DNA of 64,000 nt, taken from positions 190,456 through 254,455 of the forward strand of contig JAIOOV010000004.1 in assembly GCA_021414235.1 (NCBI GenBank), given 5' to 3'. This stretch comes from Candidatus Parcubacteria bacterium (GTDB lineage Bacteria; Patescibacteriota; Minisyncoccia; Phycocordibacterales; JAKFXT01). The notes beneath the pieces were generated by a model. The model searched no databases, was not told the origin of the DNA, and saw only the letters and a program-made list of their open reading frames with translations. Below, piece after piece: positions 10,366 through 64,000 of the stretch. The position numbers were made by a program, and so were the translations under genes. Positions within the stretch are counted from its first letter, which is position 1. Each line of letters begins with the position of its first letter.

Positions 10366-10379
10366 TCTATTCTGACGGA

Positions 10380-10916
10380 ATGGAATACACGCTGAAGCGC
10401 AGCAAACGTGCGCGAGCCATCCGCCTCTCCGTATATCCTGATGGACGGGTAGCAGTATCTGCGCCGCCCTTTGCTGCTCTGCGAACGATTGAGAGATTTC
10501 TGGAAGAGAAATCCGCTTGGATTGCGCGTACTCTTCAGTATTTAAAATCTATTCCTGCGGGGCTCGTGATCCCGACCAAGAGAGGCGACTATGCGCGCCA
10601 CAAAGAAACGGCGCACACTCTCGCAGCAGAGCGTCTCGCACATTTCAATACGCTCTACGGCTTCTCCTACGGAACCATCTCCATCCGTAACCAGAAGACC
10701 CGTTGGGGCAGCTGCTCCAAGCGGGGAAGCCTCAGCTTCAACTACAAGATCGCCCTCCTGCCTACGGAACTCGCTGACTATGTCGTTCTCCATGAACTCT
10801 GCCATAGGGGGGAATTCAACCATTCACGCCGATTCTGGGCCCTTATGGCCCGAGCCATGCCGGAATATGAGAAGAGGAGAGGGGAACTGAAGCGTATCCG
10901 CTTCGGGCGAGGCTGA
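10380..10916 (+). CDS. YgjP-like/DUF45 (M48/WLM-type) metal-dependent hydrolase
   Basis: WGSCSKRGSLSFNYKIALLP…YVVLHELCHRGEFNHSRRFW contains the HExxH-like motif of the YgjP family. Confidence 0.65.
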   Translation: MEYTLKRSKRARAIRLSVYPDGRVAVSAPPFAALRTIERFLEEKSAWIARTLQYLKSIPAGLVIPTKRGDYARHKETAHTLAAERLAHFNTLYGFSYGTISIRNQKTRWGSCSKRGSLSFNYKIALLPTELADYVVLHELCHRGEFNHSRRFWALMARAMPEYEKRRGELKRIRFGRG

Positions 10917-15710: not shown

Positions 15711-16106
15711 ATGTCATATCACGCGAATGCCATCAAGATCGCCGAAGAGAATGAGAATTTTCGAAGAGTGATTTCGACCGGGGAGAAGAGCCAGTTGGTG
15801 GTGATGAGTGTTCCTCCGGGTGGGGATGTCGGTGAGGAGACCCATGAGCATGTGGAACAGACGCTGCTTTTTGTCTCAGGTAGCGGCAAGGCAAAGCTCA
15901 ATGATGACTCTTATGAAGTGAGTGCTGGAGATGTGGTGAGGGTCACTCCTGGTGTGCGGCATAATTTCATAAACACGGGAACGGAACCCCTCAAGATCTT
16001 CACGGTCTATGCTCCGCCGAATCATATCGATGGAAGAGTGCATGCGACCAAGGAGGATGCAGAGAAGGATGTGGAAGATGAGGAGTTCGGGCATCAAGTA
16101 GCCTAG
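15711..16106 (+). CDS. Cupin-domain protein
   Basis: GGDVGEETHEHVEQTLLFVSGSGKAKL…GDVVRVTPGVRHNFINTG is a cupin_2 motif pair. Confidence 0.6.
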   Translation: MSYHANAIKIAEENENFRRVISTGEKSQLVVMSVPPGGDVGEETHEHVEQTLLFVSGSGKAKLNDDSYEVSAGDVVRVTPGVRHNFINTGTEPLKIFTVYAPPNHIDGRVHATKEDAEKDVEDEEFGHQVA

Positions 16107-16152
16107 ATTTTGCCTGCATTTCTCTAAGACAGGGCTCTGGTATCATGGGTCC

Positions 16153-17319
16153 ATGGAACCCCTGGCTTCGAGGATAAGACCTAAGAATCTGGACGAATTC
16201 GTAGGCCAGCAGCATCTCGTGGGCCCAGGGAAACCGCTGCGGAAAGCTATCGAGGAGAAGCATCTCTTCTCTTTCATCCTGTGGGGGCCGCCGGGTGTCG
16301 GTAAGACTACGCTCGCGCGCATCTATGCACAGGCGCATGGTCTCCCATTCCACGAACTCTCCGCAGTCTCTGCGGGGAAGGACGATCTGCGCAAGGTGCT
16401 CTCAGGAAGAGCTCCAGGCCAGACGGCTGTCGTCTTCCTTGATGAGATACACCGTTTCAATAAAGCGCAGCAGGATTTCCTGCTGCCGTACGTAGAGAGC
16501 GGTGCCATTGTGCTCATCGGCTCTACTACGGAGAATCCGAGCTTCGAGGTGATCGGAGCACTCCTCTCTAGAAGTCGTGTGTTTGTATTGAAAGAGCTCA
16601 CCGAAGAAGAACTCGGAGAGATCGTCAGCCGCTCGGGCATCAAGCTCGACAAGAAAGCCAAAGAGCTTCTTGTCGCACTCGCGAACGGCGATGCACGCCA
16701 AGCGCTCACGCTCCTCGAGAACACCAAGAATATTTATGGAAAAGTAACGGCAGAGACCCTTAAGGAAGCGGCCCAAGCCAAGGTGCTCCGCTACGACAAG
16801 GGAGCAGAAGAGCACTACAACACCATCAGTGCGTATATAAAGAGCATGCGCGCTTCGCAGCCGGACGCAGCGCTCTACTATCTCGCACGTATGATCGATG
16901 CAGGGGAAGATCCCAAGTTCATCGCACGCAGAATGGTCATCTTCGCTTCCGAAGATATCGGGCAGGCCTTGCCGACCGCGCTCGTGGTGGCTAACGAAGT
17001 CTTTCGCGCGGTAGAGACGATCGGGCTTCCGGAGGCCGCCATCAATCTGGCGCATGGCACGGTCTACCTCTCTGTGGCTCCCAAGGATAAGTCGGCGTAC
17101 GAAGCCTACTTCCGGGCGCTCGCGGATGTGCAGAAGCTCGGGAACTTGCCAATACCGCTCGTGGTGCGGAATGCGTCGACCAATCTCATGAAGGAACTCG
17201 AGTACGGCAAAGGCTACGAGCGGTATAGCAAAGAAGACTATCTACCGGAGAAGCTCAAGGGGACTAAGTACTACCGGCCTAAAGGGGAGGCTGCCAAGAA
17301 GCCTAAGAAGAAACCCTAA
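16153..17319 (+). CDS. rarA: Replication-associated recombination protein A (AAA+ ATPase MgsA/RarA)
   Basis: LDEFVGQQHLVG…LWGPPGVGKTTLARIYA (Walker A), VVFLDEIHRFNKAQQDFLLPYVE (Walker B/sensor), C-terminal MgsA helical domain. Confidence 0.85.
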   Translation: MEPLASRIRPKNLDEFVGQQHLVGPGKPLRKAIEEKHLFSFILWGPPGVGKTTLARIYAQAHGLPFHELSAVSAGKDDLRKVLSGRAPGQTAVVFLDEIHRFNKAQQDFLLPYVESGAIVLIGSTTENPSFEVIGALLSRSRVFVLKELTEEELGEIVSRSGIKLDKKAKELLVALANGDARQALTLLENTKNIYGKVTAETLKEAAQAKVLRYDKGAEEHYNTISAYIKSMRASQPDAALYYLARMIDAGEDPKFIARRMVIFASEDIGQALPTALVVANEVFRAVETIGLPEAAINLAHGTVYLSVAPKDKSAYEAYFRALADVQKLGNLPIPLVVRNASTNLMKELEYGKGYERYSKEDYLPEKLKGTKYYRPKGEAAKKPKKKP

Positions 17320-17419: not shown

Positions 17420-19315
17420 GTGAATCACATTGTCCGAGACATCCTCGCCTCCGCAATCGTCCTCTCTTTTTTGGCACTCTCGATATCCGCGGAAGCCCTG
17501 ACGCTCTCCGCGGCGCCTGGTACACCCACTTCTACGCTCACCACCTACATCAATGGCGCGGATCGTGCCAATTTTCCTATTACCGTCCCGCTTGAGACTG
17601 CTACCACCGGAGCGGTCGAAGGGGATACGCTGGAGCTTTTCGTAAATGGCGCCCGCTTTCCGATTCCGGTCACGGGGGTGCTCTCTGCAAGCGATATCTC
17701 TGCTGATCAGCGCACCTTCACTTTGTCGCTCACGTTCGCCAATAACCTGAGCAACGGCGTTAAGAATTTCACTGCAGCCCTCTCCTCGAACGGTATTACC
17801 TACAGTTCTTCGAGCCCCGCGCTCACGCTTACGCTCGACACGAGCGCCCCCACGCTCTCGCCGGTATCCGTGGTGTCGAATAATACGGTCACTACGAAAG
17901 CCACCACGGGAAATGTAGTAACGCTCTCCTTTACGGCGAGCGAGGGTCTACGTACCCCCACGGTAACACTCGCTGGGCGTTCAGTGACTCCTGCGGGAGG
18001 TCCTCTTTCTTGGACGGCTTCCACCACCATGCTCTCGACAGACGGGGATGGGATCATTCCCTTTAGCATCTCCTATGCCGACCTCGCTGGTAACGTGGGT
18101 ACCACCATCTCTTCGGTACGTGGCGGGGGACAGAATGTGGTGTTTGATCGTACTGCGCCGGTCATCTCCTCGGCGACGAATATTGTGACGTCTGCTACGA
18201 CGGTGGATGGGACTAGTGTGAGCTTCGCTCCGACGGCGGTCGACGGTATCGAAGGCAGCCGTCCGGTCTCGTGCAACTTCGCTTCCGGGTATCTCTTCGC
18301 GATCGGCACGACCACAGTCTCTTGTACCTCAGCCGACTCTCTCGGTAACTCTGCTTCCGCCTCTTTCACGGTGGCGGTGCGTACGTTCATGCCGCTCTCT
18401 GCAAGCACAGCTCTGACTTCCGGAGCGCAGCAGGCAGTGACCGACGAGCATACTCTCTCTGCTTCCACCATCTCGGTGCCGAGCGATGCAGATACGCCCA
18501 CGCTTAATTTCAGTCCGATCCTTACTAGGAACTCCGGTGTCCCGAGCGTCTCTCTGGGCGGCGCGATTACTGTCTCTGCGCAGAGAGGTTCGGACGTGTT
18601 CTCCCTCCTTTTTCCTTCGAACCTCACCATCACCGGGCCCTCCTCCTGGAACGGGGTGTTCAAGCTACCGACTCTTAAGGCGAGCAATAGCGTGACCGTC
18701 ACGCCGTCTTCCGGCAATACGGCAAATAATGGATCGGTCATCGAAGTGGGTTCGGAGAGCACTCCTCTCACGCTCGATCGCGCGATCCGGCTGCTCATCC
18801 CACGCGCATGGAGCGAGTTCCTGGGGAAGAGTAGTGGCGGCGTCTTCGGGAAGATCAGTGCTATCTGTAACGCGGATGATCAGGACTCCGCGGATGCCCA
18901 GCTGTCTGCGGACGGCGACTGTCGTACCTCCGTCGGGATGGATATCGTGCTCTGGACCAAGCGCCCCGGCTCCTACGTGGTGTACAGCGAGACGCCCATC
19001 GCCTCCTCTCAGAGCCCCGCTGGAGGTGGTGGTGGAGGGGGAGGTGGCGGGGGAACCCTGATCGCACAGGTCACTGAAACTGGCTCTGTGAATCGCAATG
19101 TCTCACCCCAGACTGTTTCGGATCCTGCGCTGGTGCGTCCTGCGGATATCCAGAGGGACGGCGCTATCGACATCCTGGACTTCAATTCCTTGATGGTCGG
19201 CTGGGGCACTACCTCTCCTTCCGATCCCGCGGATACCAACGGAGATGGACAGGTAGATATTCTAGATTTCAATACCCTCATGGTATATTGGGGCAGCACG
19301 TATCAACTATTATGA
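17420..19315 (+). CDS. Secreted giant surface protein: Ig/HYR-like repeats, poly-Gly linker, C-terminal dockerin-like double Ca-binding repeat
   Basis: GTG start and signal peptide. Thr/Ser-rich beta-repeat region. SPAGGGGGGGGGGGTLIAQ linker. C-terminal ADIQRDGAIDILDFNSLMVGWG and ADTNGDGQVDILDFNTLMVYWG form a duplicated D-x-N/D-GDG-x-(V/I)D-x-x-D dockerin type-I-like signature. Confidence 0.6.
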   Translation: MNHIVRDILASAIVLSFLALSISAEALTLSAAPGTPTSTLTTYINGADRANFPITVPLETATTGAVEGDTLELFVNGARFPIPVTGVLSASDISADQRTFTLSLTFANNLSNGVKNFTAALSSNGITYSSSSPALTLTLDTSAPTLSPVSVVSNNTVTTKATTGNVVTLSFTASEGLRTPTVTLAGRSVTPAGGPLSWTASTTMLSTDGDGIIPFSISYADLAGNVGTTISSVRGGGQNVVFDRTAPVISSATNIVTSATTVDGTSVSFAPTAVDGIEGSRPVSCNFASGYLFAIGTTTVSCTSADSLGNSASASFTVAVRTFMPLSASTALTSGAQQAVTDEHTLSASTISVPSDADTPTLNFSPILTRNSGVPSVSLGGAITVSAQRGSDVFSLLFPSNLTITGPSSWNGVFKLPTLKASNSVTVTPSSGNTANNGSVIEVGSESTPLTLDRAIRLLIPRAWSEFLGKSSGGVFGKISAICNADDQDSADAQLSADGDCRTSVGMDIVLWTKRPGSYVVYSETPIASSQSPAGGGGGGGGGGGTLIAQVTETGSVNRNVSPQTVSDPALVRPADIQRDGAIDILDFNSLMVGWGTTSPSDPADTNGDGQVDILDFNTLMVYWGSTYQLL

Positions 19316-20574
19316 GCATGTATAAAGCGCTTTCGACTCTCGCGATCCTGCTCGGTATAGTTCTCCTTCCTTCCACTACGGAAGCAAGTTCCTTTGTTCT
19401 CGAGAACAAGACGATAACGGTGGAGGCTGGTAAGACATTCACTCTACCGGTCACGGTGGCACCAGGGGCGGGTGAGAAGCTCTACACCGCCAAGCTCGCA
19501 CTCGACTTTTCGCCAGAGATGCTCGAAGTCGTCTCCTTCACTTTTAAGCCATCTTGGCTCTCCGTCTCCCAGCCTGGCTATGACTCTGTCGACAATCCGA
19601 GAGGTGAGATGATAAAGACTGCAGGATTCCCCAAGGGGTTCTCTTCTTCTGTTTCCTTCGGCACAGTGACCTTCCGCGCCAAGAGCGTCGGGGAGGACGT
19701 CATCAGCGTTGGCCCTCGTTCTCTCATCCTCGATGCTACTAATAAGGATACGTTGACTTCCCGAGAGCAGGCGCGAGTCACTGTCAGGGCAGCATCCTCT
19801 CTCCCGCAGTCTGCTCCTGCGAAGCCTGCGGAAGACCCGAACCTCTTCGATATAAGTCATTCTCCTGAGATACAGACGGCAGGCGTGGGGCTCGTGTCCC
19901 GGGTCGCTCCAGGTGAGTTCCTCACGTTTTCAGTAAAGCTGCTCAATTTTGGTAACAAGAACAAGGTCGATGTGGGGCTCTCTTACAACGTCACAGACTC
20001 AGAAGGGAAGGTAATCTACCACGCGGAAGAGACGGTGGCGGTCGAGACTACCGCGAGCTTCGTGAAGACCATCCAGATCCCGTATGAGACGAAGCCTGGT
20101 CGCTACGTGGTGAGGAGCTTCATCACCTACAAGGATCAAGTCGCTCCTGCGCAGACCGAATTTCCCTTCACTGTGGAGGACAAGGTCCTCGGTCTCTTCC
20201 TGAGCGACTTCACTCTCTATGGAGGCACTACGGTTACTCTCAGTATTCTCTCGGTCCTGGGCTACACCCTGTTCCGCCGGTATAAGAAGGAGACTCGGTT
20301 CGCGCCGTTCGCATACGCCAATGTCCCTAGCGATGTTCGCATCTTCTATGAGATCCTCAGCGACACCATCATGGGCATGCGTCAGAGAGTAGGGGATGAT
20401 GCGCTCTTCGTCGCCTCTCAGATCGAAGGATTGAAGATAGATATCTCTACTGGCAGGGTGCTCTCCGTAGGGGAGAATCCTTCCAAAATCATCGCCTCTC
20501 TCGTATACGAATACGAGAAGCTTCTCGGCAAGAAGGTGTCCTTCTCGCTCCGTCCGGAGTCGATAGCTGCATAA
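19312..20574 (+). CDS. Type-I membrane protein with N-terminal cohesin-like domain, CARDB-like domain, single TM helix and ~100-aa cytoplasmic tail
   Basis: ATG overlaps the upstream stop (ATGA). Signal peptide MSMYKALSTLAILLGIVLLPSTTEA. KTITVEAGKTFTLPVTVAPGAGEKLYTAKLALDFSPEMLEVVSF…FGTVTFRAKSVGEDVISVGP matches the cohesin beta-sandwich pattern. Second domain (…LTFSVKLLNFGN…VDVGLSYNVTDSEGKVIYH…PGRYVVRSFITY) is CARDB-like. TM helix is GTTVTLSILSVLGYTLF. Confidence 0.55.
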   Translation: MSMYKALSTLAILLGIVLLPSTTEASSFVLENKTITVEAGKTFTLPVTVAPGAGEKLYTAKLALDFSPEMLEVVSFTFKPSWLSVSQPGYDSVDNPRGEMIKTAGFPKGFSSSVSFGTVTFRAKSVGEDVISVGPRSLILDATNKDTLTSREQARVTVRAASSLPQSAPAKPAEDPNLFDISHSPEIQTAGVGLVSRVAPGEFLTFSVKLLNFGNKNKVDVGLSYNVTDSEGKVIYHAEETVAVETTASFVKTIQIPYETKPGRYVVRSFITYKDQVAPAQTEFPFTVEDKVLGLFLSDFTLYGGTTVTLSILSVLGYTLFRRYKKETRFAPFAYANVPSDVRIFYEILSDTIMGMRQRVGDDALFVASQIEGLKIDISTGRVLSVGENPSKIIASLVYEYEKLLGKKVSFSLRPESIAA

Positions 20575-20585
20575 AGCGGAATTTT

Positions 20586-20969
20586 ATGAAAAAGAAAAAG
20601 ACCATCCTCATAGTGGAAGACGATGACAACATACGCGATCTGGTGGTAATCGCCCTTACGCCCAAAGGGCACACCTTGCTCCAGGCGAAGAACGGTGCGG
20701 AAGGAGTGGAGCTCGCCCTTGCGAATCATCCTGATCTCATCCTGCTTGATCTCATGATGCCGGTGATGGATGGTATGACAGCTTTCAAGAAGATCCGCGA
20801 AGACGCTTGGGGCAAGAACGTACCGGTCATCATCATGACCAACCTCAGCGCCACGGAAGACAAGCTGGTAGCGGACATGGTGGCCAACAAGCCCCTCCAT
20901 TACCTCATTAAGTCTGACTGGGAGATTCCGGACGTGATCAAGAAGATCGAAGCCGCCCTAGGTCTCTGA
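20586..20969 (+). CDS. Stand-alone response-regulator receiver domain (CheY-like)
   Basis: ILIVEDDDNIRDLV…LILLDLMMPVMDGMTAFKKIRED…VPVIIMTNLSA. The phospho-acceptor Asp is in LLDLMMP and the conserved Lys in the C-terminal HYLIKSD. No output domain. Confidence 0.75.
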   Translation: MKKKKTILIVEDDDNIRDLVVIALTPKGHTLLQAKNGAEGVELALANHPDLILLDLMMPVMDGMTAFKKIREDAWGKNVPVIIMTNLSATEDKLVADMVANKPLHYLIKSDWEIPDVIKKIEAALGL

Positions 20970-21034
20970 TACCTGGTTACCCACAGGAAGTTCTCTTTCG
21001 GAAGGGTATACTGGAGCCATGGCGGTGCGCTTAC

Positions 21035-23110
21035 GTGCCCGCACCCTTTTTCGTGAAAAGATTCATTTTCCGCAGTCTAACCACTTCTCTACTCGCTGCC
21101 TCTTTCGTACTCGCTTCGCTCCCTGCAGAGGCCCTGACGCTCTCCGAAGCTCCTGGTACGCCGACCTCTCCGCTCACGACGTATATCAACGGGGCAGACC
21201 GGGCAAGTTTCTCTGTCACCGTTCCTCTCTCTACCAGTACGACCGGCGCTGTGGCGGGAGACACGCTCGAACTCTACGTGAACGGAGTTTCCTTTCCTTC
21301 TCCTGTGACCGCGGTGCTCTCGAGTAATGATGTGGATGTCACAGGTTCTCATACCTTCACTCTTGCTCTGACTTTCGCCAACAACCTGAGTAACGGGGTG
21401 AAGAATTTCACCGCAGCTCTCTCTTCTGATGGGGTGAGTACGAGTACGGCGAGTCTCGTCCCCCTTACACTTACTCTAGATACGGCGGCGCCGACGCTCT
21501 CGCCAGTGTCTCTCTCTTCAGACGATGCGACCACCACCGTCGCGAATGTTGGAAATGTGGTCACGCTTTCCTTTACTTCGAACGAAAGTATCGCTGCACC
21601 CACCGTGACGCTTGCGGGGCGTTCGGCGACCGCTATCGGAGGACCTACCTCCTGGTCCGCTTCGACCACGATGATTTCTGCGGATACCGACGGAAGCATT
21701 CCGTTCAGTATCGCTTTTGCCGACCTCGCGGGTAACGTGGGTACCACCGTCTCTACTGTCCGTGGTGGGGGACAGAACGTTACCTTTGACCATACGCCGC
21801 CGGTGCTGGTGATGTCTGACATAGTCACTGCTGCCTCCTCTTCCGCTGGAACTATCGTTCAGTTCCCAGCGCTTGCGGCCGATGCAATCGGGGGGAATAA
21901 GGCGATCGTGTGCGACCGTCTCTCGGGTTCCGTCTTTGCGATCGGTACGACGACGGTGAGCTGTACGGCGAGCGATGCTCTCAATAACTCGACGTCCACC
22001 TCCTTTACTGTTTTGGTCCGTAGCTTCACCTCTCTTTCTACTAATACCTCTCTGTATGCGGGAGCGCAGCAGGTGGTAGTGAACGCCACGACCTCGGCTA
22101 CCTCTACTGTCTCTATACCTGTTGATGCAACGAGCCCTACGTTGAATCTTGCAGCGCTGCTCTCTACTACGAGTGATAGCGCGAGCGTGAGCCTAGGTGG
22201 CGCGCTTGCTGTGGAGGCGGTGAGGGGCGGCAATACGATCGCGGTCGCATTTCCTGCGGGGCTCACGGTCACCGGCCCTTCTTCCTGGAACGGTGTGCTC
22301 AATCTGCCCACGGTGAAGGCGAGCGATAGTGTCACGGTTACACCTACCGCTAATTACCGGGCGAGCGTGGGGCAGGTCATAGAGATAGGCGCTGGTGACG
22401 TTGCGCTGACGCTCGATCGTGCCGTACGCATCCTCATTCCTGGTGCTTGGCAGGCGTTCCTTGGCTGGAGCCGTAACGGAACCTTCGGCGCGATCACTAC
22501 GGTCTGTAACGCTGACAATCAAGGTGTTGTAGATGCACAACTTTCTGCCGGAGCAGATTGTCGCGTCAACATCGGCCAGGATACGGCTATATGGACTAAG
22601 CACTTCAGTTCCTTCTTCCCTTATGGAGAGACGCCCATCTCCTCTGTGTCTTCCGGAGGAAATGGCGGTGGAGGAGGGGGAGGTGGCGGTGGCTTCATAT
22701 CCGCCCAGACATCAGTGTCTGTTCAAACCGCACCTGCAACCCCTTCTCTTTCTGTAGAGCCTGTGGGTGCTGTTCTCGGTGCCTCGACCTATCGCTTCTC
22801 TACGACGCTCAAGAAAGGTTCGCGCGGTACGGCAGTGAAGGAGCTGCAGAAGATCCTCAAGGAAGAAGGCCTTTTCGATGAAGAGATCACTGGTCTCTTT
22901 GGAAACGTGACTCTACAGGCGGTTAAAGCGTATCAGAAGAAGAACAAGCTTGAGGCGGTAGGCGAAGTGGGGCCGGCTACGCGCAAGCTTCTCAATGCGC
23001 GCGCCACTTCCTCCCCAGCGCAATCGACAGATGCCCTTCGTGCGCAGATAGATCAGCTTCTCCTTTTGGTAAAGGCGCTCCAGGCGCAGATGAAGACGGC
23101 GGGTAATTAA
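21035..23110 (+). CDS. Paralogous giant surface protein: Ig/HYR-like repeats, poly-Gly linker, C-terminal peptidoglycan-binding (PG_binding_1) module
   Basis: Collinear with 17420-19315 at about 60-75% identity over roughly the first 540 aa (EALTLSEAPGTPTSPLTTYINGADRA…). Linker SSGGNGGGGGGGGGGFISAQ. The C-terminus LKKGSRGTAVKELQKILKEEGLFDEEITGLFGNVTLQAVKAYQKK is PG_binding_1-like instead of dockerin. Confidence 0.6.
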   Translation: MPAPFFVKRFIFRSLTTSLLAASFVLASLPAEALTLSEAPGTPTSPLTTYINGADRASFSVTVPLSTSTTGAVAGDTLELYVNGVSFPSPVTAVLSSNDVDVTGSHTFTLALTFANNLSNGVKNFTAALSSDGVSTSTASLVPLTLTLDTAAPTLSPVSLSSDDATTTVANVGNVVTLSFTSNESIAAPTVTLAGRSATAIGGPTSWSASTTMISADTDGSIPFSIAFADLAGNVGTTVSTVRGGGQNVTFDHTPPVLVMSDIVTAASSSAGTIVQFPALAADAIGGNKAIVCDRLSGSVFAIGTTTVSCTASDALNNSTSTSFTVLVRSFTSLSTNTSLYAGAQQVVVNATTSATSTVSIPVDATSPTLNLAALLSTTSDSASVSLGGALAVEAVRGGNTIAVAFPAGLTVTGPSSWNGVLNLPTVKASDSVTVTPTANYRASVGQVIEIGAGDVALTLDRAVRILIPGAWQAFLGWSRNGTFGAITTVCNADNQGVVDAQLSAGADCRVNIGQDTAIWTKHFSSFFPYGETPISSVSSGGNGGGGGGGGGGFISAQTSVSVQTAPATPSLSVEPVGAVLGASTYRFSTTLKKGSRGTAVKELQKILKEEGLFDEEITGLFGNVTLQAVKAYQKKNKLEAVGEVGPATRKLLNARATSSPAQSTDALRAQIDQLLLLVKALQAQMKTAGN

Positions 23111-50979: not shown

Positions 50980-52188
50980 CTAGCGGCGACCCTGACGGAG
51001 ATAGGCGGGGAGCTGTAAAAGGGGGATGGTTTCCTGGGAGCGGGTCTTCATATGGCGCACGATGGCGCTGCCTTCCAGGGCTTCTTTCTGACCGATGATG
51101 ATGGTATAGGGGATAGCCATCTTCTCAGCCACCATGATCTGCGCGGACATGCGGTCCTTGGGGAGCGCCTGGAGGACCGGAATCTTTGCTTGGCGGAGCA
51201 CCTCGATTGCGGCGAGGCTCTGGAGCTTGGCGTCGAAGCCGAGCTGGATGAGATAGGCGGCAGGAGGCTTTAGCTGCTGCGTGTCCTTCTTCGGCTCCGC
51301 AAGTCCGAGGCCTCCCAAGGAGAGCGAGATGCCCACTGCATAGATATCCTTCTTGGAGCCGAATTTCTTGCCGAGGTCGTCATAGCGGCCGCCCTTGGCG
51401 AGGAGCGCGGAGTGGAGCTTGCCCTTCATCTTGCGGCTATTCGGCTCTTCTGTGTGTATCTCGAAGATGGTCTTGGTATAGAAATCCTTGCCGCCTACCA
51501 GGCAGTGGTTGATGCCGTAGGGCATGCGCATGCTCTCGAGGAACTCGAGCACTTCGCTGAAGTGCGTGCGGCTGGTCTCGGAGAGGGAGCCCATGGGCTT
51601 CGGCGCTGCTTCCGTGAGGATATTGCACTTCTCGTGCGCATTCACGCACTCAAGCGTGCGGAAGATATCCTTCTTCTTGAGATGCGCTTTGCAGGCTGCG
51701 GGGATGTCGGCGAGGTGCTTGTTGCAGTAGTTGCCGAATTCGCGGGAGAAGCGGGCGATGGATTCGCGATCCCCGAGGCTGTTCAATTCCACGTAGAGCT
51801 TCTCGAAGCCGAGTTCTTCCAGGATGATGCTGGTGGTCTTGAAGAGGATAGCTTCGGCGATACTCTTGCTTGATCCGATGATCTCAAGAGAGAAGAAGAC
51901 GCCCTCCTTGCCCCCGTAATTCTCCCGAGGGAGCTGCTTGGGGAGCGGTTCGCTGTGATACAGGAGAAGGGGCTGGGGAAGGGTGCCGAGGTTGTGCTTC
52001 ACGTAGGCTTCCAGGATGTTCTGTCGCTTGGCTTCTCCAGGGACGCCATCTTTGCCGAGATGAAGCTTCTTACCCTTAAGCTCTCCTTCAAGAAGAGAGG
52101 AGAGCGGAGAGAAACCGTAGTAACGGGCGATTTCGCGGGCTTTTTCGTAACGACGGAGATTCTCTGGAGAGGCTTTGGGCATGGTCAC
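50980..52188 (-). CDS. hisS: Histidine--tRNA ligase
   Basis: Class II aaRS motifs with the HisRS-specific GGRYD-like region (AKGGRYDDLGKKFG) and an anticodon-binding domain. GTG start. Confidence 0.85.
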   Translation of the reverse strand: MTMPKASPENLRRYEKAREIARYYGFSPLSSLLEGELKGKKLHLGKDGVPGEAKRQNILEAYVKHNLGTLPQPLLLYHSEPLPKQLPRENYGGKEGVFFSLEIIGSSKSIAEAILFKTTSIILEELGFEKLYVELNSLGDRESIARFSREFGNYCNKHLADIPAACKAHLKKKDIFRTLECVNAHEKCNILTEAAPKPMGSLSETSRTHFSEVLEFLESMRMPYGINHCLVGGKDFYTKTIFEIHTEEPNSRKMKGKLHSALLAKGGRYDDLGKKFGSKKDIYAVGISLSLGGLGLAEPKKDTQQLKPPAAYLIQLGFDAKLQSLAAIEVLRQAKIPVLQALPKDRMSAQIMVAEKMAIPYTIIIGQKEALEGSAIVRHMKTRSQETIPLLQLPAYLRQGRR

Positions 52189-52736
52189 TTGGTCTCGATC
52201 ACTCCTGGGAAGAGATCAGCCTTGGGAAGCGGGAAGAGGCGTATGAAAGCGCGTCCGATGATGTTGTCGCGCGGAAGCGCTCCCCAGGCACGTGAGTCGG
52301 AGCTCGCGGCGCGATTGTCACCCATGACGAAGTATTCCTCTGCTCCCAAAGTCATCTCCCCATCATCCTCGCGGGGGAAGCGGATGTAGGACTGGTCGAG
52401 GGCGAAGCCTTTGGGATACACGCTGTTCTTTATGGTCACTTCGCCTTGGCTGATCTCTACGGTCTCTCCAGGGAGTCCCACGATGCGCTTGATGAAATAC
52501 TTAGAAGGGTCCTTGGGGTAGCGGAAGATGATCACGTCGCCGCGCTCAGGCTCGGAGAAATGATAGCTGAGGCGGTCTACCACCAGATATTCGCCGGTAT
52601 CGAAGGTTGGCTCCATGGATGCACCCGAGACGATGAAGGGTTCAGCGACGAAGAGACGGATGGGGACGATGATCGCGAGAGTCAGGAAAGCGAAACGAGC
52701 CATTTCTTGAAGGAGCGAAGGCTGTTTCGTTTCCAT
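52185..52736 (-). CDS. lepB: Signal peptidase I
   Basis: Box B VSGASMEPTF (catalytic Ser), box D RGDVIIFRYP, box E YFVMGDNRAASSDSR. Confidence 0.8.
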   Translation of the reverse strand: METKQPSLLQEMARFAFLTLAIIVPIRLFVAEPFIVSGASMEPTFDTGEYLVVDRLSYHFSEPERGDVIIFRYPKDPSKYFIKRIVGLPGETVEISQGEVTIKNSVYPKGFALDQSYIRFPREDDGEMTLGAEEYFVMGDNRAASSDSRAWGALPRDNIIGRAFIRLFPLPKADLFPGVIETK

Positions 52737-57616: not shown

Positions 57617-60076
57617 ATGGCGGAAAAGAAGGAGGAACAGCTTGAGGAGCGCGGCATTCTGCCTCGCAACATCACTACCGAGATGCGGGAGTCGTACCTC
57701 GATTACGCCATGTCGGTCATCACTCAGCGCGCCCTCCCGGATGCGCGCGATGGACTGAAGCCGGTGCATCGCCGCATCCTCTTCACTATGCATGAGATGG
57801 GACTCACCACCTCTGCCAAGTTCCGTAAATCCGCAGCGGTTGTGGGTGACGTGATGGGAAAATTCCATCCGCATGGCGACGCCTCCATCTATGACGCTAT
57901 GGCCAAGATGGCGCAGGATTTCAGCTATCGCTACCCGCTCGTCTTCGGCCAGGGTAACTTCGGTTCGGTAGACGGCGACGCTCCGGCCGCCATGCGTTAT
58001 ACCGAGGCCAAGATGGCCAAGCTCTCGGCAGAGCTCATCCGCGATCTTGAGAAAGAGACAGTGGAATTCCGCCTCAACTACGACAGTACTCGTAAGGAGC
58101 CGGTAGTCTTCCCGGCAGCCGTACCGAATCTGCTTCTCAATGGAACCCTCGGCATCGCCGTGGGTATGGCCTCCAACATCCCGCCGCACAATCTGCGCGA
58201 AGTAGTGGATGCCACCGTCTATCTCATTGAGAATCCGGAGGCTACTACTGAAGACCTCCTTCAGTTCGTGAAGGGGCCGGATTTTCCGACGGCAGGCATC
58301 GCCTACAACAAGGATGACATCCGTCACGCCTATGCGAACGGCAAGGGAGGAGTGGTGGTGCGCGGCGAGGCCGAGATTACTGAGAACAAGGGTGGGCAGT
58401 TCCAGATAATCATCACCTCGATCCCGTTCCGCGTGAACAAGTCCGAGCTTATCATCTCCATTGCCGACCTGGTGCGTGAGAAGAAGCTCGAGGGTATCCG
58501 CGCCATCAACGATCTCTCTACGCGCGATACGCGCATCGTCATCGACTTAAAGACGGGCGTTGAGCCGCAGCGCGTCCTCAATTTCCTCTACAAGCACACT
58601 CAGCTCGAAGAGACTTTTCATTACAACATGGTGGCGCTGGTCGGCGGCGTCCCTCAGACGCTCTCGCTCAAGGCAGTCCTCGACGAATTCATCGTCCATC
58701 GCGGTGAGGTGGTACGCCGACGCTCCGCATTCGACCTTAAGCAGGCTGAAGCGCGTGAGCACATCCTCCTCGGACTCAAGAAGGCGCTCGACCATATCGA
58801 CGCGGTCATCAAGCTCATCCGTGCTTCCAAGGACACCCCGACCGCGCATGCGAACCTGATGAAGGAGTTTAAGTTCTCTACACTCCAGGCCACGGCCATC
58901 TTGGAAATGCGCTTGCAGAAGCTCGCTGGCCTCGAGCGCAAGAAGATCGAGGATGAGCTCAAAGAGGTACAGGCACTCATCGCATATCTTGAGGATCTCT
59001 TAGCACACCCCAAGAAGATCCTGGCCCTCATCAAGAAAGAGCTCGCTGAGATCGCAGAGAAATATGGGGACGAGCGCCGTACTCGCATCGTGGCAGGCGG
59101 AGCCAAGGCGTTCTCTGCAGAAGACCTTGTCGCGGACGAGGACAGCGTGCTGGTGTATACCGCAGGCGGCTACGTGAAGCGTACTAATCCGGAGGAGTAC
59201 AAGAAGCAGCGCCGCGGCGGCGTGGGCGTGGTGGATCTCGATACCAAGGAAGAGGATTTCATCACTCAGTTCATTACCACCAATACCCACAGCGATCTCC
59301 TGTTCTTCTCGGACAAGGGCAAGGCGTATCAGATCAAGATGTACGAGATACCGGAAGGACGCAGGGCTACCCGCGGCAAATCCATCATGAACTTCCTGCC
59401 GCTCTCGGCAGATGAGAAGATCACCTCGGTGCTTCCGATGACTAAGGAGGTCAAGAAAGCTGCAGGGGACGATCTCTCGCTCATGATGGTCACGCGTGAT
59501 GGCACTGGCAAGAAGACGGCGGTCAAGGGCTTCTTCGATGTCCGCCGTAGCGGCATCATCGCCATTAAGCTCGAGCCGGGCGATGTGCTCGTCTCTGCAT
59601 TCCTCGTGGGGAAGGGCGACTCGGTGATCCTGGGCACGCGTAAGGGCCAATCCATCCGCTTCAAGGAGGCGGACATCCGCGAGATGGGCAGGAATGCGCA
59701 GGGCGTGCGCGCTATCAAGCTTGGTAAGGGCGATGCACTCGTCGCCGCGGATGTGGTCAAGAAGGAATACAAGGAACCTTCGCTCCTCGTCATGTCCGCC
59801 AATGGCTACGGCAAGCGCACGCCGCTCTCCGAGTACAAGATCCAGGGTCGTGGCGGCTCTGGTATCAAGACGGCCAACGTCACTGCAAAGACAGGGGATA
59901 TCATGACGGGCGCAGTCATTTTCGATGAAGAATCAGAGCTCATCTCCATTTCCAAACAGAGCCAGGTGATCAGGGTGGATATAAAAGAGATTCCGCGTCT
60001 CGGCCGCTCCACTCAGGGTGTGCGGGTGATGAAGCTCCGCGAGGGGGATAGTCTCGCTTCGTTGGTCTGCTTGTAG
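57617..60076 (+). CDS. gyrA: DNA gyrase subunit A
   Basis: The active-site Tyr region (…[13 protein letters not shown]…) and the QRDR-like segment …[26 protein letters not shown] are conserved. The C-terminal six-bladed beta-pinwheel repeats carry a GyrA box-like QGRGGSG. Confidence 0.92.
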
Positions 60077-60130: not shown

Positions 60131-60658
60131 ATGGCGTTTCTTGATCCGCGGATGACGCTCTCTCCGCTCGGACTCTCCTCGGGAATGAAGGTGGCGGACG
60201 TGGGCGCCGGCTCCGGTGCCTACGCTCTCGCCGCTGCGGAGGCGGTGGGGGATTCCGGAGTCATTTACGCAATCGACGTTCAGAAGGAGCTCTTGGGCAA
60301 GCTTAAGCGCGAAGCGGAGCGCCGCGGGAAGCACTCCATTCATATCGTCTGGGCGAACGCAGAGGTGCTGGGCGGGAGCGGTCTCAATGACCAGAGTGTG
60401 GATGCGGCTATCTTCTCAAACGTGCTCTTCCAGATGGAAGACAAGGAGGAGGCGCTTAGAGAGGTCCGTCGCATCTTGGTCCCTAAGGGCCGAGTACTCG
60501 TCATCGATTGGTCTGAGAGCGGGGGCTTGGGCCCCCAGAAAGGACATCTCTTTGGTAAAGCTGCCGCCCGCGCGCTCTTTGAGGGGAACGGCTTCACCTT
60601 CCGCACAGAGTCTCGCGCCGGGGATCATCATTACGCGCTCGTATTTCAAAAATCATGA
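60131..60658 (+). CDS. Class I SAM-dependent methyltransferase
   Basis: Motif I VADVGAGSGAYALAAA. Motif post-I VIYAIDVQ. Confidence 0.65.
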   Translation: MAFLDPRMTLSPLGLSSGMKVADVGAGSGAYALAAAEAVGDSGVIYAIDVQKELLGKLKREAERRGKHSIHIVWANAEVLGGSGLNDQSVDAAIFSNVLFQMEDKEEALREVRRILVPKGRVLVIDWSESGGLGPQKGHLFGKAAARALFEGNGFTFRTESRAGDHHYALVFQKS

Positions 60659-61968
60659 AATCTCTTACCTCTTTCCAGATCGTAGTTCTCATCCTCTGTC
60701 TCCTCGGTATCGTTGGTGGCGTAGCCGCCTTCGCTACTTATCGAGGCGGGAATTCTGCTCAAAATCTTCCTCCTATGACGCTCTGGGGTACTGTGCCGCA
60801 GGAGAAGATGGAATCCTTGCTCATGAATTCCGCAGGGCTCCAGGGGTCTGGGCTCAAGCTCTCATATGTGGAGAAGCGTTCTGAGTCCATAGAGTCTGAT
60901 CTGGTGGATGCTCTCGCGAGCGGCAGGGGGCCTGATCTCATCCTTGCTTCACAGGATCTGATATTGAGACAGCAGGGTAAACTGGCAGTACTTCCGTACG
61001 AAAATCTCTCCGAGCGCGATTTCAAGGATACCTTTGTCGGAGGGGCGGAGATCTTCCTTTCACCTGCGGGCACTATAGCTCAGCCGATGCTGGTAGATCC
61101 TCTGGTCCTCTACTGGAACCGGACTCTCCTCACGAATGCTGGAGTCGCCAATCCTCCCCGCTACTGGGATGAGCTCTTCACCTTGGCTCCTCTGGTGAGC
61201 CAGAAGGATAAGCAGGGGAATATCATCCGAAGTCTGGTCGCCTTCGGTGAGTATGGCAACGTGACGGACGCCAAAAGCATCCTCTCCGCACTCATCCTCC
61301 AGGGAGGGAATGCGATAGTCGGGAAGGATAGCAGCGGACGCTACACTTCTCTCTTGCGGCTCCAGACCGCGGAAGAGCTTTCTCCAGTCGAATCCGCCGT
61401 GCGCTTCTATACTGATTTCTCCAATCCCTCCAAGACTATCTATTCCTGGAATCGCGGGCTGCAGGCTTCTCAGGATATGTTTGCGGCGGGGAAGCTGGGG
61501 CTTTATATAGGTTTTGCGAGTGAACTCTCCGCTATCCGCGCCAAGAATCCTAACCTTGATTTCGATGTGACTTCTTTGCCTCAGGTGCGTGATGGCGCAC
61601 GGGTCGCTACCTACGGACGCTTCTATTCTTTAGCCGTTCCTCGCGCAAGTATGAACCAGGCGTATGCGCTCTTGGCGGCGCAAAGGCTTGCTGAGCCTGC
61701 TTTGGCGCAGGAATTCGCCAATCTGATCGGTTTCTCCCCGGTACGTCGCGATCTCTTGGGGGCTACTCCTTCTGATTCGTATCTCTTCGTCTTCTATCGA
61801 GCGGCGCTCCAGTCCTACTCTTGGCTTGATCTGGATGCTGAGGGTTCCGATGATGTCTTCCGTCGGATGATCGAATCCGTCACTTCTGGCCGTGCCCGCA
61901 TCGGGGAGGCGGTAGGGAGGGCTCATGAGGAGCTGCAGGAGCTTTTGAATCGCTTTAATCCGCGTTAA
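60655..61968 (+). CDS. Membrane-anchored extracellular solute-binding protein (SBP_bac_1/MalE-like), orphan
   Basis: N-terminal TM anchor. …DLILASQDLI…, LVLYWNRTLLTNAGVANPPRYWDEL and …LYIGFASE… are hallmark segments of family-1 sugar-binding proteins. No permease or ATPase genes adjacent. Confidence 0.5.
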   Translation: MKSLTSFQIVVLILCLLGIVGGVAAFATYRGGNSAQNLPPMTLWGTVPQEKMESLLMNSAGLQGSGLKLSYVEKRSESIESDLVDALASGRGPDLILASQDLILRQQGKLAVLPYENLSERDFKDTFVGGAEIFLSPAGTIAQPMLVDPLVLYWNRTLLTNAGVANPPRYWDELFTLAPLVSQKDKQGNIIRSLVAFGEYGNVTDAKSILSALILQGGNAIVGKDSSGRYTSLLRLQTAEELSPVESAVRFYTDFSNPSKTIYSWNRGLQASQDMFAAGKLGLYIGFASELSAIRAKNPNLDFDVTSLPQVRDGARVATYGRFYSLAVPRASMNQAYALLAAQRLAEPALAQEFANLIGFSPVRRDLLGATPSDSYLFVFYRAALQSYSWLDLDAEGSDDVFRRMIESVTSGRARIGEAVGRAHEELQELLNRFNPR

Positions 61969-62000: not shown

Positions 62001-62396
62001 ATGAATCTCTCCTCGATTAAGCACGCGGCTTCCTGCTCTTACGCCTACACCCTCCTCGCCTTGCTTTCGGCTCCGTATCTTCTCAGGGCGGAGGGCGCCG
62101 TAGACAACCCCAGTCCTGTCACCGGCGGAAGCGGTATCCTGAGGAATCCGATCAATGCCAACAACATCCAGGATCTTTTAGGGCTCATCATGAATGTCAT
62201 CACTATTTTGGTGCTGCCGTTCGCTATCTTCTTCTTGGTGCGCACCGGCTTCTTCTTCGCGACGGCGGGTGGCAATGAAGACAAGATCAGTCGGGCCAAG
62301 ACTGACTTCCTCTACGTGGTCATAGGCCTTGCTATCATCCTCGGCGCTCAGCTTATCGGAGCCATCCTTCAGAACACTTTAAATTCGCTTAGATAA
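62001..62396 (+). CDS. VirB2/TrbC-like two-helix pilin paralog 1 (C-terminus …NSLR)
   Basis: Possible signal peptide (AYTLLALLSAPYLLRAEGA), then two hydrophobic helices (IMNVITILVLPFAIFFLV and FLYVVIGLAIILGAQLIGAIL) separated by a charged turn (TAGGNEDKISRAK). Confidence 0.5.
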   Translation: MNLSSIKHAASCSYAYTLLALLSAPYLLRAEGAVDNPSPVTGGSGILRNPINANNIQDLLGLIMNVITILVLPFAIFFLVRTGFFFATAGGNEDKISRAKTDFLYVVIGLAIILGAQLIGAILQNTLNSLR

Positions 62397-62782
62397 TGAA
62401 GAAATTTTCAATTATCGCGCTTACGCTATCGTCCTTTCCTCTCTTGGCGTTTGCTCAGCAGCGGAGCGGCTATTCTGGCCAAACCTTCGCTGGCCTGGTA
62501 AGGGTGATTGTGGGCTATATCAATCCCATCGCTTCTATCCTCATCAGCCTGACCATGCTCGTCTTCCTCTATAACCTGATGCGCTACGTGTGGACGGCAG
62601 GGGATAGTAAGGAGCATGGAGAGGCTATACGCAGTATCGGCTGGAGCCTCCTCGGTCTTCTCGTCCTCTTTGGCATGTGGGGCATCTTGAGCATTGCTTC
62701 GGCAACGCTCTTCGGGACGTCTCTTTTGGGAGGTGGGGACCCTTGTCACGTGGATCCTGGTTCGTCCTCTGTGACCTGCTAA
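62396..62782 (+). CDS. VirB2/TrbC-like two-helix pilin paralog 2 (Cys-containing Gly-rich tail)
   Basis: Signal peptide MKKFSIIALTLSSFPLLAFAQQ. Helix 1 VGYINPIASILISLTMLVFLYNLM. Turn TAGDSKEHGEAIR. Helix 2 SLLGLLVLFGMWGILSIA. Tail GGGDPCHVDPGSSSVTC. Its start overlaps the paralog-1 stop (ATGA). Confidence 0.55.
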   Translation: MKKFSIIALTLSSFPLLAFAQQRSGYSGQTFAGLVRVIVGYINPIASILISLTMLVFLYNLMRYVWTAGDSKEHGEAIRSIGWSLLGLLVLFGMWGILSIASATLFGTSLLGGGDPCHVDPGSSSVTC

Positions 62783-62871
62783 ATCACTCACTTATCCACA
62801 GGGAAGTTGTTAAATAGGCCTTATCTCCTATAATAGTGGGGTAACAGATACATTACCTATACTTTTAGTTT

Positions 62872-63261
62872 ATGAAGAAAATTCTCATGCGAGCAGGGGC
62901 GATCAGCGTAGCGGTGCTTCCGTTCGTAGCGTCCGCTCAGCAGGTCAGTGACACCTATTTCCGGAGCATAATTACTGCAGTCAACGGTCTTATCACTGCG
63001 CTCTTCCCGCTCGTCTTCGCAGGTGCGGTCCTCGGGTTCATGATCGGTATCGGCATGTATCTCTTCTCCGGCGGCGATGAGGGTAAGAAAGAGAAGGCTC
63101 AGGATGTGATGAAGTACGGCCTCATCGTGCTCTTCGTTATGTTCGCAGTCTACGGAATCATCAGGCTTGCCGCTAACGTTCTCGGTATCGGTCTTGGCGG
63201 CAGTATCCCTACTCCTACTCTTCCTACCACCGGTGGCGGTTGTGCAGGCGGTAACTGTTAG
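62872..63261 (+). CDS. VirB2/TrbC-like two-helix pilin paralog 3 (Cys-containing Gly-rich tail)
   Basis: Signal peptide MKKILMRAGAISVAVLPFVASAQQ. Helix 1 LITALFPLVFAGAVLGFMIGIGMYLF. Turn SGGDEGKKEKAQD. Helix 2 GLIVLFVMFAVYGIIRLAANVLG. Tail PTTGGGCAGGNC. Closely matches the TrbC/VirB2 pfam-like pattern. Confidence 0.6.
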   Translation: MKKILMRAGAISVAVLPFVASAQQVSDTYFRSIITAVNGLITALFPLVFAGAVLGFMIGIGMYLFSGGDEGKKEKAQDVMKYGLIVLFVMFAVYGIIRLAANVLGIGLGGSIPTPTLPTTGGGCAGGNC

Positions 63262-63279
63262 TTTCTCCTGGTCTATTCT

Positions 63280-63546
63280 GTGTCAGGCTCTCAAACTACA
63301 GCGATCAATAGCTTAATAGGGAAGTTCGCTACGGCGATCATTAACCCGCTTCTCCTATTGATGTTCGCCGCGGCCTTCTTGTACTTCGTTTACGGCATCT
63401 TCCAGTTCGTGCGGAATCCTGAGGATAGCGGCGCGCGTTCGAAAGGGCTTCAGCATATGTTCTATGGGCTCATCGGCTTGCTTCTGATGGTCTCTGCTGG
63501 GGCGATCTTCAACATCGTAAAATCGACGGTGAATTCGCTGAGGTAA
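63280..63546 (+). CDS. VirB2/TrbC-like two-helix pilin paralog 4 (C-terminus …NSLR, GTG start, no cleavable signal)
   Basis: Helix 1 ATAIINPLLLLMFAAAFLYFVYGIF. Turn RNPEDSGARSKG. Helix 2 MFYGLIGLLLMVSAGAIFNIV. Ends VNSLR like paralog 1. Confidence 0.5.
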   Translation: MSGSQTTAINSLIGKFATAIINPLLLLMFAAAFLYFVYGIFQFVRNPEDSGARSKGLQHMFYGLIGLLLMVSAGAIFNIVKSTVNSLR

Positions 63547-63568
63547 GGGTCGAGAAGCGAATAGAAGC

Positions 63569-63599
63569 AAAAAGCGCCCGCTTGCTGCGGGCGCTTTTT
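63569..63599 (+). terminator. Rho-independent terminator after pilin array
   Basis: aaaagcgcccgc-ttgct-gcgggcgctttt. Confidence 0.6.
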
Positions 63600-63640
63600 G
63601 CTAAACTCTCCTTCGGCGTATTTACTAGCACCTTCTCGTG

Positions 63641-63713
63641 TCCGCCCAGAAGGACTCGAACCTTCGACCAATTGCTTAAGAGGCAACTGCTCTACCAACT
63701 GAGCTATGGGCGG
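63641..63713 (-). tRNA. tRNA-Lys (anticodon CUU)
   Basis: Reverse complement: ccgccca-ta-gctcagttggtagagc-a-gttgc-ctCTTaa-gcaat-tggtc-gaagg-ttcgagt-ccttc-tgggcgg-a. Confidence 0.8.
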
Positions 63714-63767
63714 ATGAACTCCGTTAAATTACCAGATTATTCGCTTTCAGGGAATACCTTCTGACTA

Positions 63768-63850
63768 GTAGGCCGGGTGGGGGTCGAACCCACATCCGCT
63801 AATGCGGACAACATTTTAAGTGTTGCGCGTATACCATTCCGCCACCGGCC
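63768..63850 (-). tRNA. tRNA-Leu (anticodon UAA), class II
   Basis: Reverse complement: gggccgg-tg-gcg-gaatggtata-cgc-g-caaca-ctTAAaa-tgttg-(tccgcattagcggat)-gtggg-ttcgacc-cccac-ccggcct. Confidence 0.75.
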
Positions 63851-63902
63851 CGCAAACTGCTCTATCTAACCCGCTCTTTTGAGCGAGCAAAAATCCGGGC
63901 GA

Positions 63903-63974
63903 TTTTTGCTAGAGGCGTAGGGCGGAATCGAACCGCCGTATAAGAGTTTTGCAGACTCTCGCCTTACCACTTGG
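63903..63974 (-). tRNA. tRNA-Cys (anticodon GCA)
   Basis: Reverse complement: ggcgtag-ta-gcc-aagtggtaa-ggc-g-agagt-ctGCAaa-actct-tatac-ggcgg-ttcgatt-ccgcc-ctacgcc-t. Confidence 0.8.
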
Positions 63975-64000
63975 CTACTACGCCTTACCTTTCTCCTGAA

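Follow-up and report, generated by a model that had tools for sequence, protein, structure and literature searches.

An Ordered Array of Four Putative VirB2-Like Pilin Genes in a Conserved gyrA-Linked Block of a Candidatus Parcubacteria Genome

Near the end of a 64,000-nucleotide stretch from a metagenome-assembled genome (MAG) of Candidatus Parcubacteria (assembly GCA_021414235.1, contig JAIOOV010000004.1, positions 190,456 to 254,455), here called the window, four co-oriented open reading frames (ORFs) occupy positions 62001-63546 of the plus strand. Their products are identical to the NCBI entries MCE9644044-47 (K8Q93_02275-02290), which belong to a contig of 544,218 bp and were all deposited as "hypothetical protein". 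A preliminary description of this DNA, made from the sequence alone, had proposed that the four proteins are pilins of the kind used by conjugative type IV secretion systems (T4SSs). Sequence comparison indicates that the ORFs are real genes and belong, as divergent members, to the VirB2-like pilin family of Patescibacteria (PF18895, related to TrbC/VirB2). They follow a fixed order of distinct types in a conserved chromosomal block without physical linkage to recognised T4SS genes, and they may supply the subunits of a heteromeric surface structure.

The Array and Its Junctions

The four small ORFs are present exactly as first described, with the lengths given in Table 1, and the tRNA cluster reported beyond them was also found, on the opposite strand. 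The overlap between genes 1 and 2, which had been given as ATGA, is actually a single base, TAATG, with the stop codon TAA at 62394-62396 and the ATG at 62396-62398. An ATGA overlap does occur at the junction of the methyltransferase gene and the gene for a solute-binding protein (SBP) that precede the array, as well as between the orthologues of ORFs 1 and 2 at a related locus (L002, see below). The intergenic gaps within the array measure 89 nt between paralogues 2 and 3 and 18 nt between paralogues 3 and 4.

The 89-nt gap holds a promoter-like site, but promoter-like sites across the array region show no excess over shuffled sequence, and this one is a consensus match alone. Downstream of paralogue 4, a perfect inverted repeat, bordered by an A-tract at one end and a T-tract at the other, is likely to act as a bidirectional intrinsic terminator that serves both the pilin array and the convergent tRNA genes (Lys, Leu and Cys). 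At the DNA level, repetition within the array is limited to remnants of 14-29 nt in the leader regions, which rules out recent tandem duplication or gene conversion.

Table 1. Positions of the array and of associated features in the window (types are defined in the text).
Feature	Positions	Strand	Remarks
Paralogue 1 (type B)	62001-62396	+	131 aa
Paralogue 2 (type C)	62396-62782	+	128 aa
Paralogue 3 (type C)	62872-63261	+	129 aa
Paralogue 4 (type D)	63280-63546	+	88 aa, GTG start
Promoter-like site TTGTTA-16-TATAAT	62807-62834	+	10/12 consensus matches; in the gap between paralogues 2 and 3
Perfect 16-nt inverted repeat AGCAAAAAGCGCCCGC / GCGGGCGCTTTTTGCT	63566-63602		Likely terminator
tRNA cluster Lys, Leu, Cys	63640-63984	-	Convergent with the array; tRNA-Lys faces paralogue 4
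Extracellular solute-binding protein (SBP_bac_1/8)	60655-61968	+	Pfam; N-terminal membrane anchor; 32 nt from paralogue 1
Class I S-adenosylmethionine-dependent methyltransferase	60131-60658	+	Stop overlaps SBP start (ATGA)
gyrA	57617-60076		Upstream of the array
Signal peptidase I gene	52185-52736		Sequence reading; Peptidase_S26 match on the syntenic L002 gene

Family Assignment

All four proteins match the Pfam family PF18895 (T4SS_pilin), with 28.3, 22.0, 29.0 and 24.3 bits for paralogues 1 to 4; paralogues 1 and 3 score above the gathering threshold of 26.6 bits. Paralogue 1 is alone among the four in also matching TrbC/VirB2 (PF04956, gathering threshold 27.9 bits). These matches, together with the AlphaFold2 hairpins described below, bear out the pilin call of the preliminary description, which had proposed a comparison with hidden Markov models (HMMs) of the TrbC and T4SS pilin families as a check.

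An alignment of 40 sequences (A5), composed of the four window proteins and 36 database relatives, extends this result to the wider family. PF18895 is matched by 35 of the 40 (best E-value 1.9e-18) and TrbC by 13 at E<0.01 (best 1.1e-6). The NCBIfam model NF045849, which describes a pilin-like conjugal transfer protein of Mycoplasma integrative and conjugative elements (ICEs), gives 21.3, 24.3, 17.3 and 32.2 bits for paralogues 1 to 4, all below its cut-off of 40 bits; for paralogue 4 it is the best NCBIfam match (E 6e-8).

Comparison with canonical pilins was made through an alignment (A6) of seven annotated VirB2/TrbC proteins from MPF_T plasmids, which are relatives of the Ti-plasmid-type VirB2. 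With hhalign, the alignment of type B proteins (A7), to which paralogue 1 belongs, can be superimposed on A6 over 61 collinear columns. The match is weak (probability 9%, E 0.0035) and spans the (D/N)P..NI..F motif at the mature N-terminus. The whole-family profile aligned with a single VirB2 at E 0.15, and a profile search of PDB sequences returned only spurious matches to transmembrane helices, for example those of G-protein-coupled receptors (GPCRs) at E ~0.002. None of the four proteins matched a PHROG phage family at E<0.09, and the neighbours of the array are gyrA, tRNAs and translation genes.

The PF18895-type pilin family is very large. In a search of 1.84 billion proteins, the family profile matched 101,048 representatives (50% identity level) at E<=1e-3; at E<=1e-10 the number was 31,614.

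In its top matches (P0047, P0051 and P0069), between 2 and 17 PF18895 hairpin domains follow one another within a single ORF. P0047 has 552 aa and six domains (235.9 bits). In P0069, which is 1,775 aa long, the profile matches 17 times; Pfam PF18895 picks up 11 of these matches, and there is a TrbC match of 83.8 bits. Such fused poly-pilins would have to be processed or else would function as polytopic membrane proteins, and they are not mentioned in the published accounts of the family that were examined.

Architecture of the Four Proteins

Every one of the four proteins has two hydrophobic segments of ~19-25 residues, with Kyte-Doolittle peaks of 1.9-2.7, separated by a short charged loop. 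The loop reads GGNEDK in ORF 1, AGDSKE in ORF 2, GGDEGK in ORF 3 and PEDSGA in ORF 4. For paralogue 1, AlphaFold2 predicts a helix-loop-helix hairpin with helices at 56-88 and 93-130 and a predicted local distance difference test (pLDDT) score of 85-91; for paralogue 3, it predicts helices at 27-65 and 70-104 (pLDDT ~85-91), again as a hairpin, followed by a disordered tail. Hydropathy of all four and the two predicted structures therefore agree with the two helices and charged turn that had been read from the sequence.

Outside the hairpin, the proteins differ. Paralogue 1 begins with a leader of ~31 aa (...LLRA/EG), followed by a Gly/Pro-rich spacer, an NP motif, helix 1, the GGNEDK...AK loop, helix 2 and an NSLR end. 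The asparagine and proline of the motif (N49 and P50) are invariant in the type B alignment. In paralogue 2, an MKK...LLAFA/QQ leader precedes the two helices, and the tail contains a Cys-x10-Cys pair (PCHVDPGSSSVTC), which is kept in the orthologues at two related loci (L002 and L007). Paralogue 3 likewise starts with a leader, MKK...FVASA/QQ, and its two helices are followed by a tail rich in Gly, Pro and Thr. Its terminal CAGGNC is not conserved, since orthologues at 59-77% identity are without the Cys residues. Paralogue 4, at 88 aa, has no leader.

As read from the sequence, the leaders of paralogues 1 to 3 resemble signal peptides in their n-, h- and c-regions and end in LRA, AFA and ASA. 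The A(F/S)AQQ leader of the preliminary description is thus seen in ORFs 2 and 3, while that of ORF 1 differs and ORF 4 is leaderless. The C-termini had been described correctly: ORFs 1 and 4 end in TLNSLR and TVNSLR, and ORFs 2 and 3 in ...GGGDPCHVDPGSSSVTC and ...TTGGGCAGGNC.

Pilin Types, Their Order and Selection

Clustering of 41 pilins from eight loci yields types that are collinear along the array, in the order (A)-B-C-C-D. Type A has an N-terminal Cys motif and is absent from the window. Type B, with the invariant NP motif, is TrbC-like, and its representative, paralogue 1, is the most TrbC/VirB2-like of the window proteins. Type C has a leader and variable tails and occurs in two or three copies, here as paralogues 2 and 3. 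Type D, represented by paralogue 4, is leaderless, 78-98 aa long and always last; a leaderless protein in the last position was seen in L002, L007, L011, L012, L014, L016, L017 and L018. Relatives have A-B-C-C(-C)-D, of which the B-C-C-D array of the window is a reduced form. The two alternating sub-types first proposed are not upheld: pairwise protein identity within the array is only 24-40%, and the relatives give three types in the order B-C-C-D.

The array has changed faster than its neighbours. In comparison with L002, the ratio of non-synonymous to synonymous substitution rates (dN/dS) is 0.03 for gyrA, 0.05 for the methyltransferase gene, 0.09 for the SBP gene and 0.11-0.15 for paralogues 1 to 3, with dS at ~1-1.6 and thus near saturation; dS of paralogue 4 is saturated, so the values cover paralogues 1 to 3. 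These three genes are under purifying selection that is relaxed relative to the housekeeping neighbours, and overall positive selection is ruled out. The same ratios, together with 1:1 orthologues at 74-80% identity, argue that the four ORFs are not chance ORFs.

A Conserved Gene Block

In every related locus that was fetched, the pilin genes are part of one block, which runs in the order metallo-beta-lactamase (MBL)-fold gene, small ORF, gyrA, methyltransferase, SBP and four to six PF18895 pilins. The block is present in Kaiser-, Wolfe- and Zambryskibacteria, that is, within the class Paceibacteria. The methyltransferase gene lies between gyrA and the SBP gene in all related loci whose contigs reach that far upstream, and the distance from the SBP stop codon to the first pilin start is 1-50 nt (L002, L004, L011, L012, L014, L016, L017 and L018). 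The SBP is therefore a conserved neighbour of the array, and a functional link between it and the pilins would rest on this proximity. No ABC (ATP-binding cassette) permease was recognised in the window, either by reading the sequence or in Pfam scans, and the SBP is for this reason called an orphan.

The number of paralogues is four in the window and four to six elsewhere. L002, a 140-kb JGI contig with GyrA at 97% identity, has four pilins that are 1:1 orthologues of those in the window (80, 75, 75 and 74% identical), the fourth having been missed by the gene caller. The Logan contigs L004 and L005 (GyrA 91%) likewise have four. Five are found in the Logan contigs L011 (GyrA 65%) and L014, which starts in the SBP gene (SBP 42% identical), and in the complete Kaiserbacteria genome CP070993.1 (L016). 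Six are found in the Logan contigs L012 and L013 (GyrA 66%), in a Wolfebacteria MAG (L017) and in the Zambryskibacteria MAG GCA_001823875.1 (L018). The linkage to gyrA, the methyltransferase and the SBP, and the fixed order of pilin types, find no mention in the searchable literature.

Three further loci deserve comment. Two contigs of the Paceibacterota MAG DASPJT01 (contigs 31 and 20; L006 and L007) each carry a copy of the array, with matches to paralogue 4 that are 84% and 83% identical to the window, indicating either strain heterogeneity or a true duplication of the locus. On a 578-kb ENA scaffold (L008), a distant array of two pilins at 10001-10814 lies ~7 kb from dnaA/dnaN, next to UbiA and PGI genes, without an adjoining SBP gene; linkage to an SBP is thus not universal for PF18895 arrays. 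In L012, a gene for a type IV pilin-like protein (N_methyl, PF07963) is located at 15718-16404, ~5 kb downstream of the VirB2-like array.

Separation from Type IV Secretion Genes

The array had been proposed to be the edge of a T4SS. This is not supported: no T4SS family was found in the window ORFs of at least 388 aa or in the flanks of the related arrays, and there is no physical linkage to recognised T4SS genes. The Pfam scan covered every window ORF of this size; 19 of them belong to families outside the T4SS, and one (6464-7627) received no assignment. Among the assigned proteins are LamG/Big surface proteins, HYR/dockerin/cohesin proteins, a TPR membrane protein, MurJ, LepA, a class I tRNA synthetase, FtsZ, FtsA, TsaD, MgsA, an ABC-F protein and GyrA. 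Where the contigs of relatives continue downstream of the array, the genes of the following 4-10 kb include tRNAs, rbfA, infB, an aminotransferase gene and a gene for a trypsin-like protease.

Other surface proteins are encoded in the window. At 17420-23110, there are two paralogous HYR-domain surface proteins of 631 and 691 aa, one with a dockerin-like end and the other with a peptidoglycan-binding domain at its end. Between them lie a membrane protein with a cohesin domain (19288-20574) and a response-regulator-like gene with a receiver domain (20586-20969, sequence reading). This could possibly be a cohesin-dockerin surface display set in a genome of the candidate phyla radiation (CPR). Elsewhere, a secreted protein of 131 aa (2315-2710), whose mature part consists almost entirely of low-complexity repeats of Tyr, Asp, Ser, Asn and Trp (...YYDTSYDSYWYTPSYTWDSDYY...), is encoded just after a 732-aa LamG/Big/peptidoglycan-binding surface protein (36-2234).

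VirB2-Like Pilins in Patescibacteria

Arrays of VirB2-like pilins have already been described in Patescibacteria (PMC12102498; PMC10633639; PMC12857230), so the suggestion that the window encodes a novel filament is not supported. A survey of 3,035 Patescibacteria genomes with PF04956, PF18895 and other profiles (Quinonero-Coronel et al. 2025; PMC12102498) found VirB4 in 2,417 assemblies (80%). VirB2-like pilins were present in 1,948 of the VirB4-positive assemblies, in 1,135 of these near virB4. In 383 assemblies, pilin genes formed arrays of 2-11 members, 441 arrays in all, with a mean identity of 25%. Table S1 of that study records VirB4 for the Zambryskibacteria genome GCA_001823875.1, in which the block of the window recurs. 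In Southlakia epibionticum, epibiotic growth depends on a series of predicted pilins encoded within the T4SS cluster (Wang et al. 2023; PMC10633639), and in this one tested species the T4SS itself is essential as well. According to a 2025 review, the T4SSs of Patescibacteria are the only monoderm T4SSs with VirB2-like pilins, and their function is described in the literature as completely unknown. Against this background, the array in the window is a new example of the published VirB2 arrays, and the gene block and subunit order, which were not found described, are a modest addition.

A Heteromeric Assembly Driven by VirB4?

The explanation favoured here, which is probable although held with some reserve, is that the four ORFs encode pilins of the VirB2-array kind that serve as subunits of a VirB4-driven, heteromeric surface filament or channel. 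What this would involve in terms of Sec route, membrane topology, VirB4 dependence, filament formation and host contact is drawn from the protein family and the literature. Paralogues 1 to 3 would enter the membrane by the Sec route and lose their leaders to signal peptidase I, while paralogue 4 would insert as a leaderless hairpin. Each protein would then form a two-helix membrane hairpin whose Lys/Arg-containing loop is cytoplasmic, with the N-terminus and the variable C-terminal tail, including the Cys-x10-Cys loop of paralogue 2, facing outward. A VirB4-type ATPase machine, corresponding to the monoderm T4SS of Patescibacteria derived from the FATA class of mating-pair formation (MPF) systems and putatively encoded elsewhere in the genome, would take subunits from this membrane pool and assemble them into a surface filament or channel for contact with the host cell.

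In such an assembly, the paralogues would be distinct subunit types with specialised roles, in the manner of major and minor subunits. The argument for this is that the order of types and their distinct architectures have been kept across the class Paceibacteria. The existence of single ORFs with 2-17 fused pilin domains suggests, in addition, that different units may act in one assembly.

Several results weigh against this interpretation. The Pfam scores are borderline: paralogues 2 and 4 stay under the PF18895 cut-off (E 1.8e-4 and 3.3e-5, respectively), and the TrbC/VirB2 match of paralogue 1 (23.3 bits, E 7.7e-5) is under the cut-off of that family. In structure searches, the hairpin was indistinguishable from hundreds of unrelated helical hairpins, and solved conjugative pilins were absent from the top matches. 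No match to a VirB4 or VirD4 ATPase was found among the ORFs of at least 388 aa in the 62 kb upstream of the array, VirB3, VirB6 and VirB8, which are small or multi-pass, not having been searched for with dedicated models. There are also no T4SS Pfam families in the sequence around the arrays of relatives, which extends up to 10 kb on each side. The fused multi-domain versions would need processing before a VirB2-like polymerisation and, according to reviews, an extracellular filament has not been demonstrated for any member of the PF18895 family.

Alternative Explanations

It is conceivable, although rather unlikely, that the array and the anchored SBP, perhaps with the methyltransferase, make up a self-contained envelope module that is independent of any T4SS and acts in ligand capture, uptake or adhesion. 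The hairpins would in that case be integral membrane subunits and would not form a filament. The array follows the SBP gene at a distance of 1-50 nt in all lineages compared, over a range of GyrA identity of 97% to 65% and in three named candidate groups; the SBP has no recognised permease in the window, and no T4SS gene was identified nearby. Furthermore, fused proteins with up to 17 hairpins resemble polytopic membrane proteins more than they do pilus subunits. However, gyrA, the methyltransferase gene and the MBL-fold gene are equally conserved, and the linkage may therefore be inherited gene order. The two-pilin array of L008 does without an adjoining SBP gene, the PF18895 genes of other Patescibacteria classes are found inside T4SS clusters and are essential there, and a genome with the very same block, GCA_001823875.1, has VirB4.

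A related and equally tentative proposal treats the gyrA-linked block as a distinct module of the whole class Paceibacteria, in which the SBP (possibly with the methyltransferase) would be co-expressed with ordered A-B-C-D subunits of a heteromeric surface or membrane structure. Such a structure might be independent of VirB4, or it might couple ligand capture by the SBP to a T4SS-like conduit, for example to take up nutrients from the host.

Another possibility, which appears less probable still, is that the paralogues are exchangeable versions of a single major pilin, maintained as a source of variation in antigens or host range. This was suggested for the Patescibacteria pilins by the authors of the survey themselves (PMC12102498), and a similar proposal exists for the multiple VirB2 copies of Bartonella and Anaplasma. 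The low identity within the array would fit, as would the change in copy number from four to six between lineages and the divergence of the pilins, which are 74-80% identical where GyrA is 97% identical and have a dN/dS three to five times higher. On the other hand, each paralogue has a 1:1 orthologue, the order of types is constant across deep divergence, and the architectures differ (leaderless D, NP-motif B, Cys-motif A). There is no DNA-level repeat or other sign of gene conversion, and dN/dS is overall well below 1. Since the number of genes varies only in the middle type, C, any such variation may concern type C alone.

That the ORFs are spurious, or encode unrelated small two-helix membrane proteins (holins, phage- or toxin-like) whose HMM matches reflect hydrophobic composition, would accord with the marginal Pfam scores, the non-specific fold searches and some compositional attraction of the profile to GPCR helices, but is very improbable and largely refuted by the conserved chromosomal synteny, the purifying selection, the PF18895 and TrbC matches of relatives and of the fused P0069, and the housekeeping neighbours. 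The holin or phage identity, which the preliminary description had named as the alternative to pilins, is rejected in particular, as there is neither a PHROG match nor a phage context.

Comparison with Known Pilin Systems

The nearest parallels to the VirB2-like array of the window are found in the same phylum and the same Pfam family: the predicted pilin series of the S. epibionticum ML1 T4SS cluster (SEML1_0006-0019), the Sec-secreted array of Nanosynbacter lyticus TM7x and those of the genome survey (PMC12102498). Like these, the window array consists of tandem, divergent (~25% identity in published arrays) two-helix proteins, mostly with putative Sec-type leaders. Unlike the array of the S. 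epibionticum T4SS cluster, it is located outside a T4SS cluster, in a gyrA/methyltransferase/SBP block, and has a fixed order of types.

The TrbC/VirB2 proteins, such as VirB2 of Agrobacterium tumefaciens and TrbC of RP4, appear to share with the window proteins a long leader, a hairpin of ~70 residues and a basic loop, and there are weak HMM matches and a collinear but weak profile alignment. The differences are that the window proteins score below the PF04956 cut-off, that there are four paralogues instead of one gene and that the host is monoderm. The genomic setting also differs: no virB1, virB3 or virB4 gene was recognised next to the array, while the six bona fide VirB2/TrbC genes that were retrieved all lie between virB1 and virB3. 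Neither cyclisation nor a pilus is in evidence for the window proteins.

The VirB2 paralogues of Bartonella and Anaplasma phagocytophilum offer another precedent for tandem amplification and divergence in a host-dependent bacterium. However, the copies in these bacteria are regarded as surface variants that can replace one another, whereas the types in the window are ancient, positionally conserved and architecturally distinct. Finally, Mbov_0395 and MMCAP2_0565 (NF045849), encoded by Mycoplasma ICEs, are also small (~80 aa) two-helix proteins of a monoderm MPF-FATA-type system, but the window proteins remain under the cut-off of this model and have no ICE context.

Significance

Patescibacteria, which are ultrasmall, represent a large share of bacterial diversity and are dependent on host cells. 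With this analysis, four of their "hypothetical" genes gain a family assignment. The pilin set of Paceibacteria is kept as an ordered group of distinct types, which argues for specialised roles over simple antigenic variation, and it is kept apart from any recognised T4SS ATPase gene and beside an orphan SBP. This conserved neighbourhood provides a testable lead on the function of the pilins.

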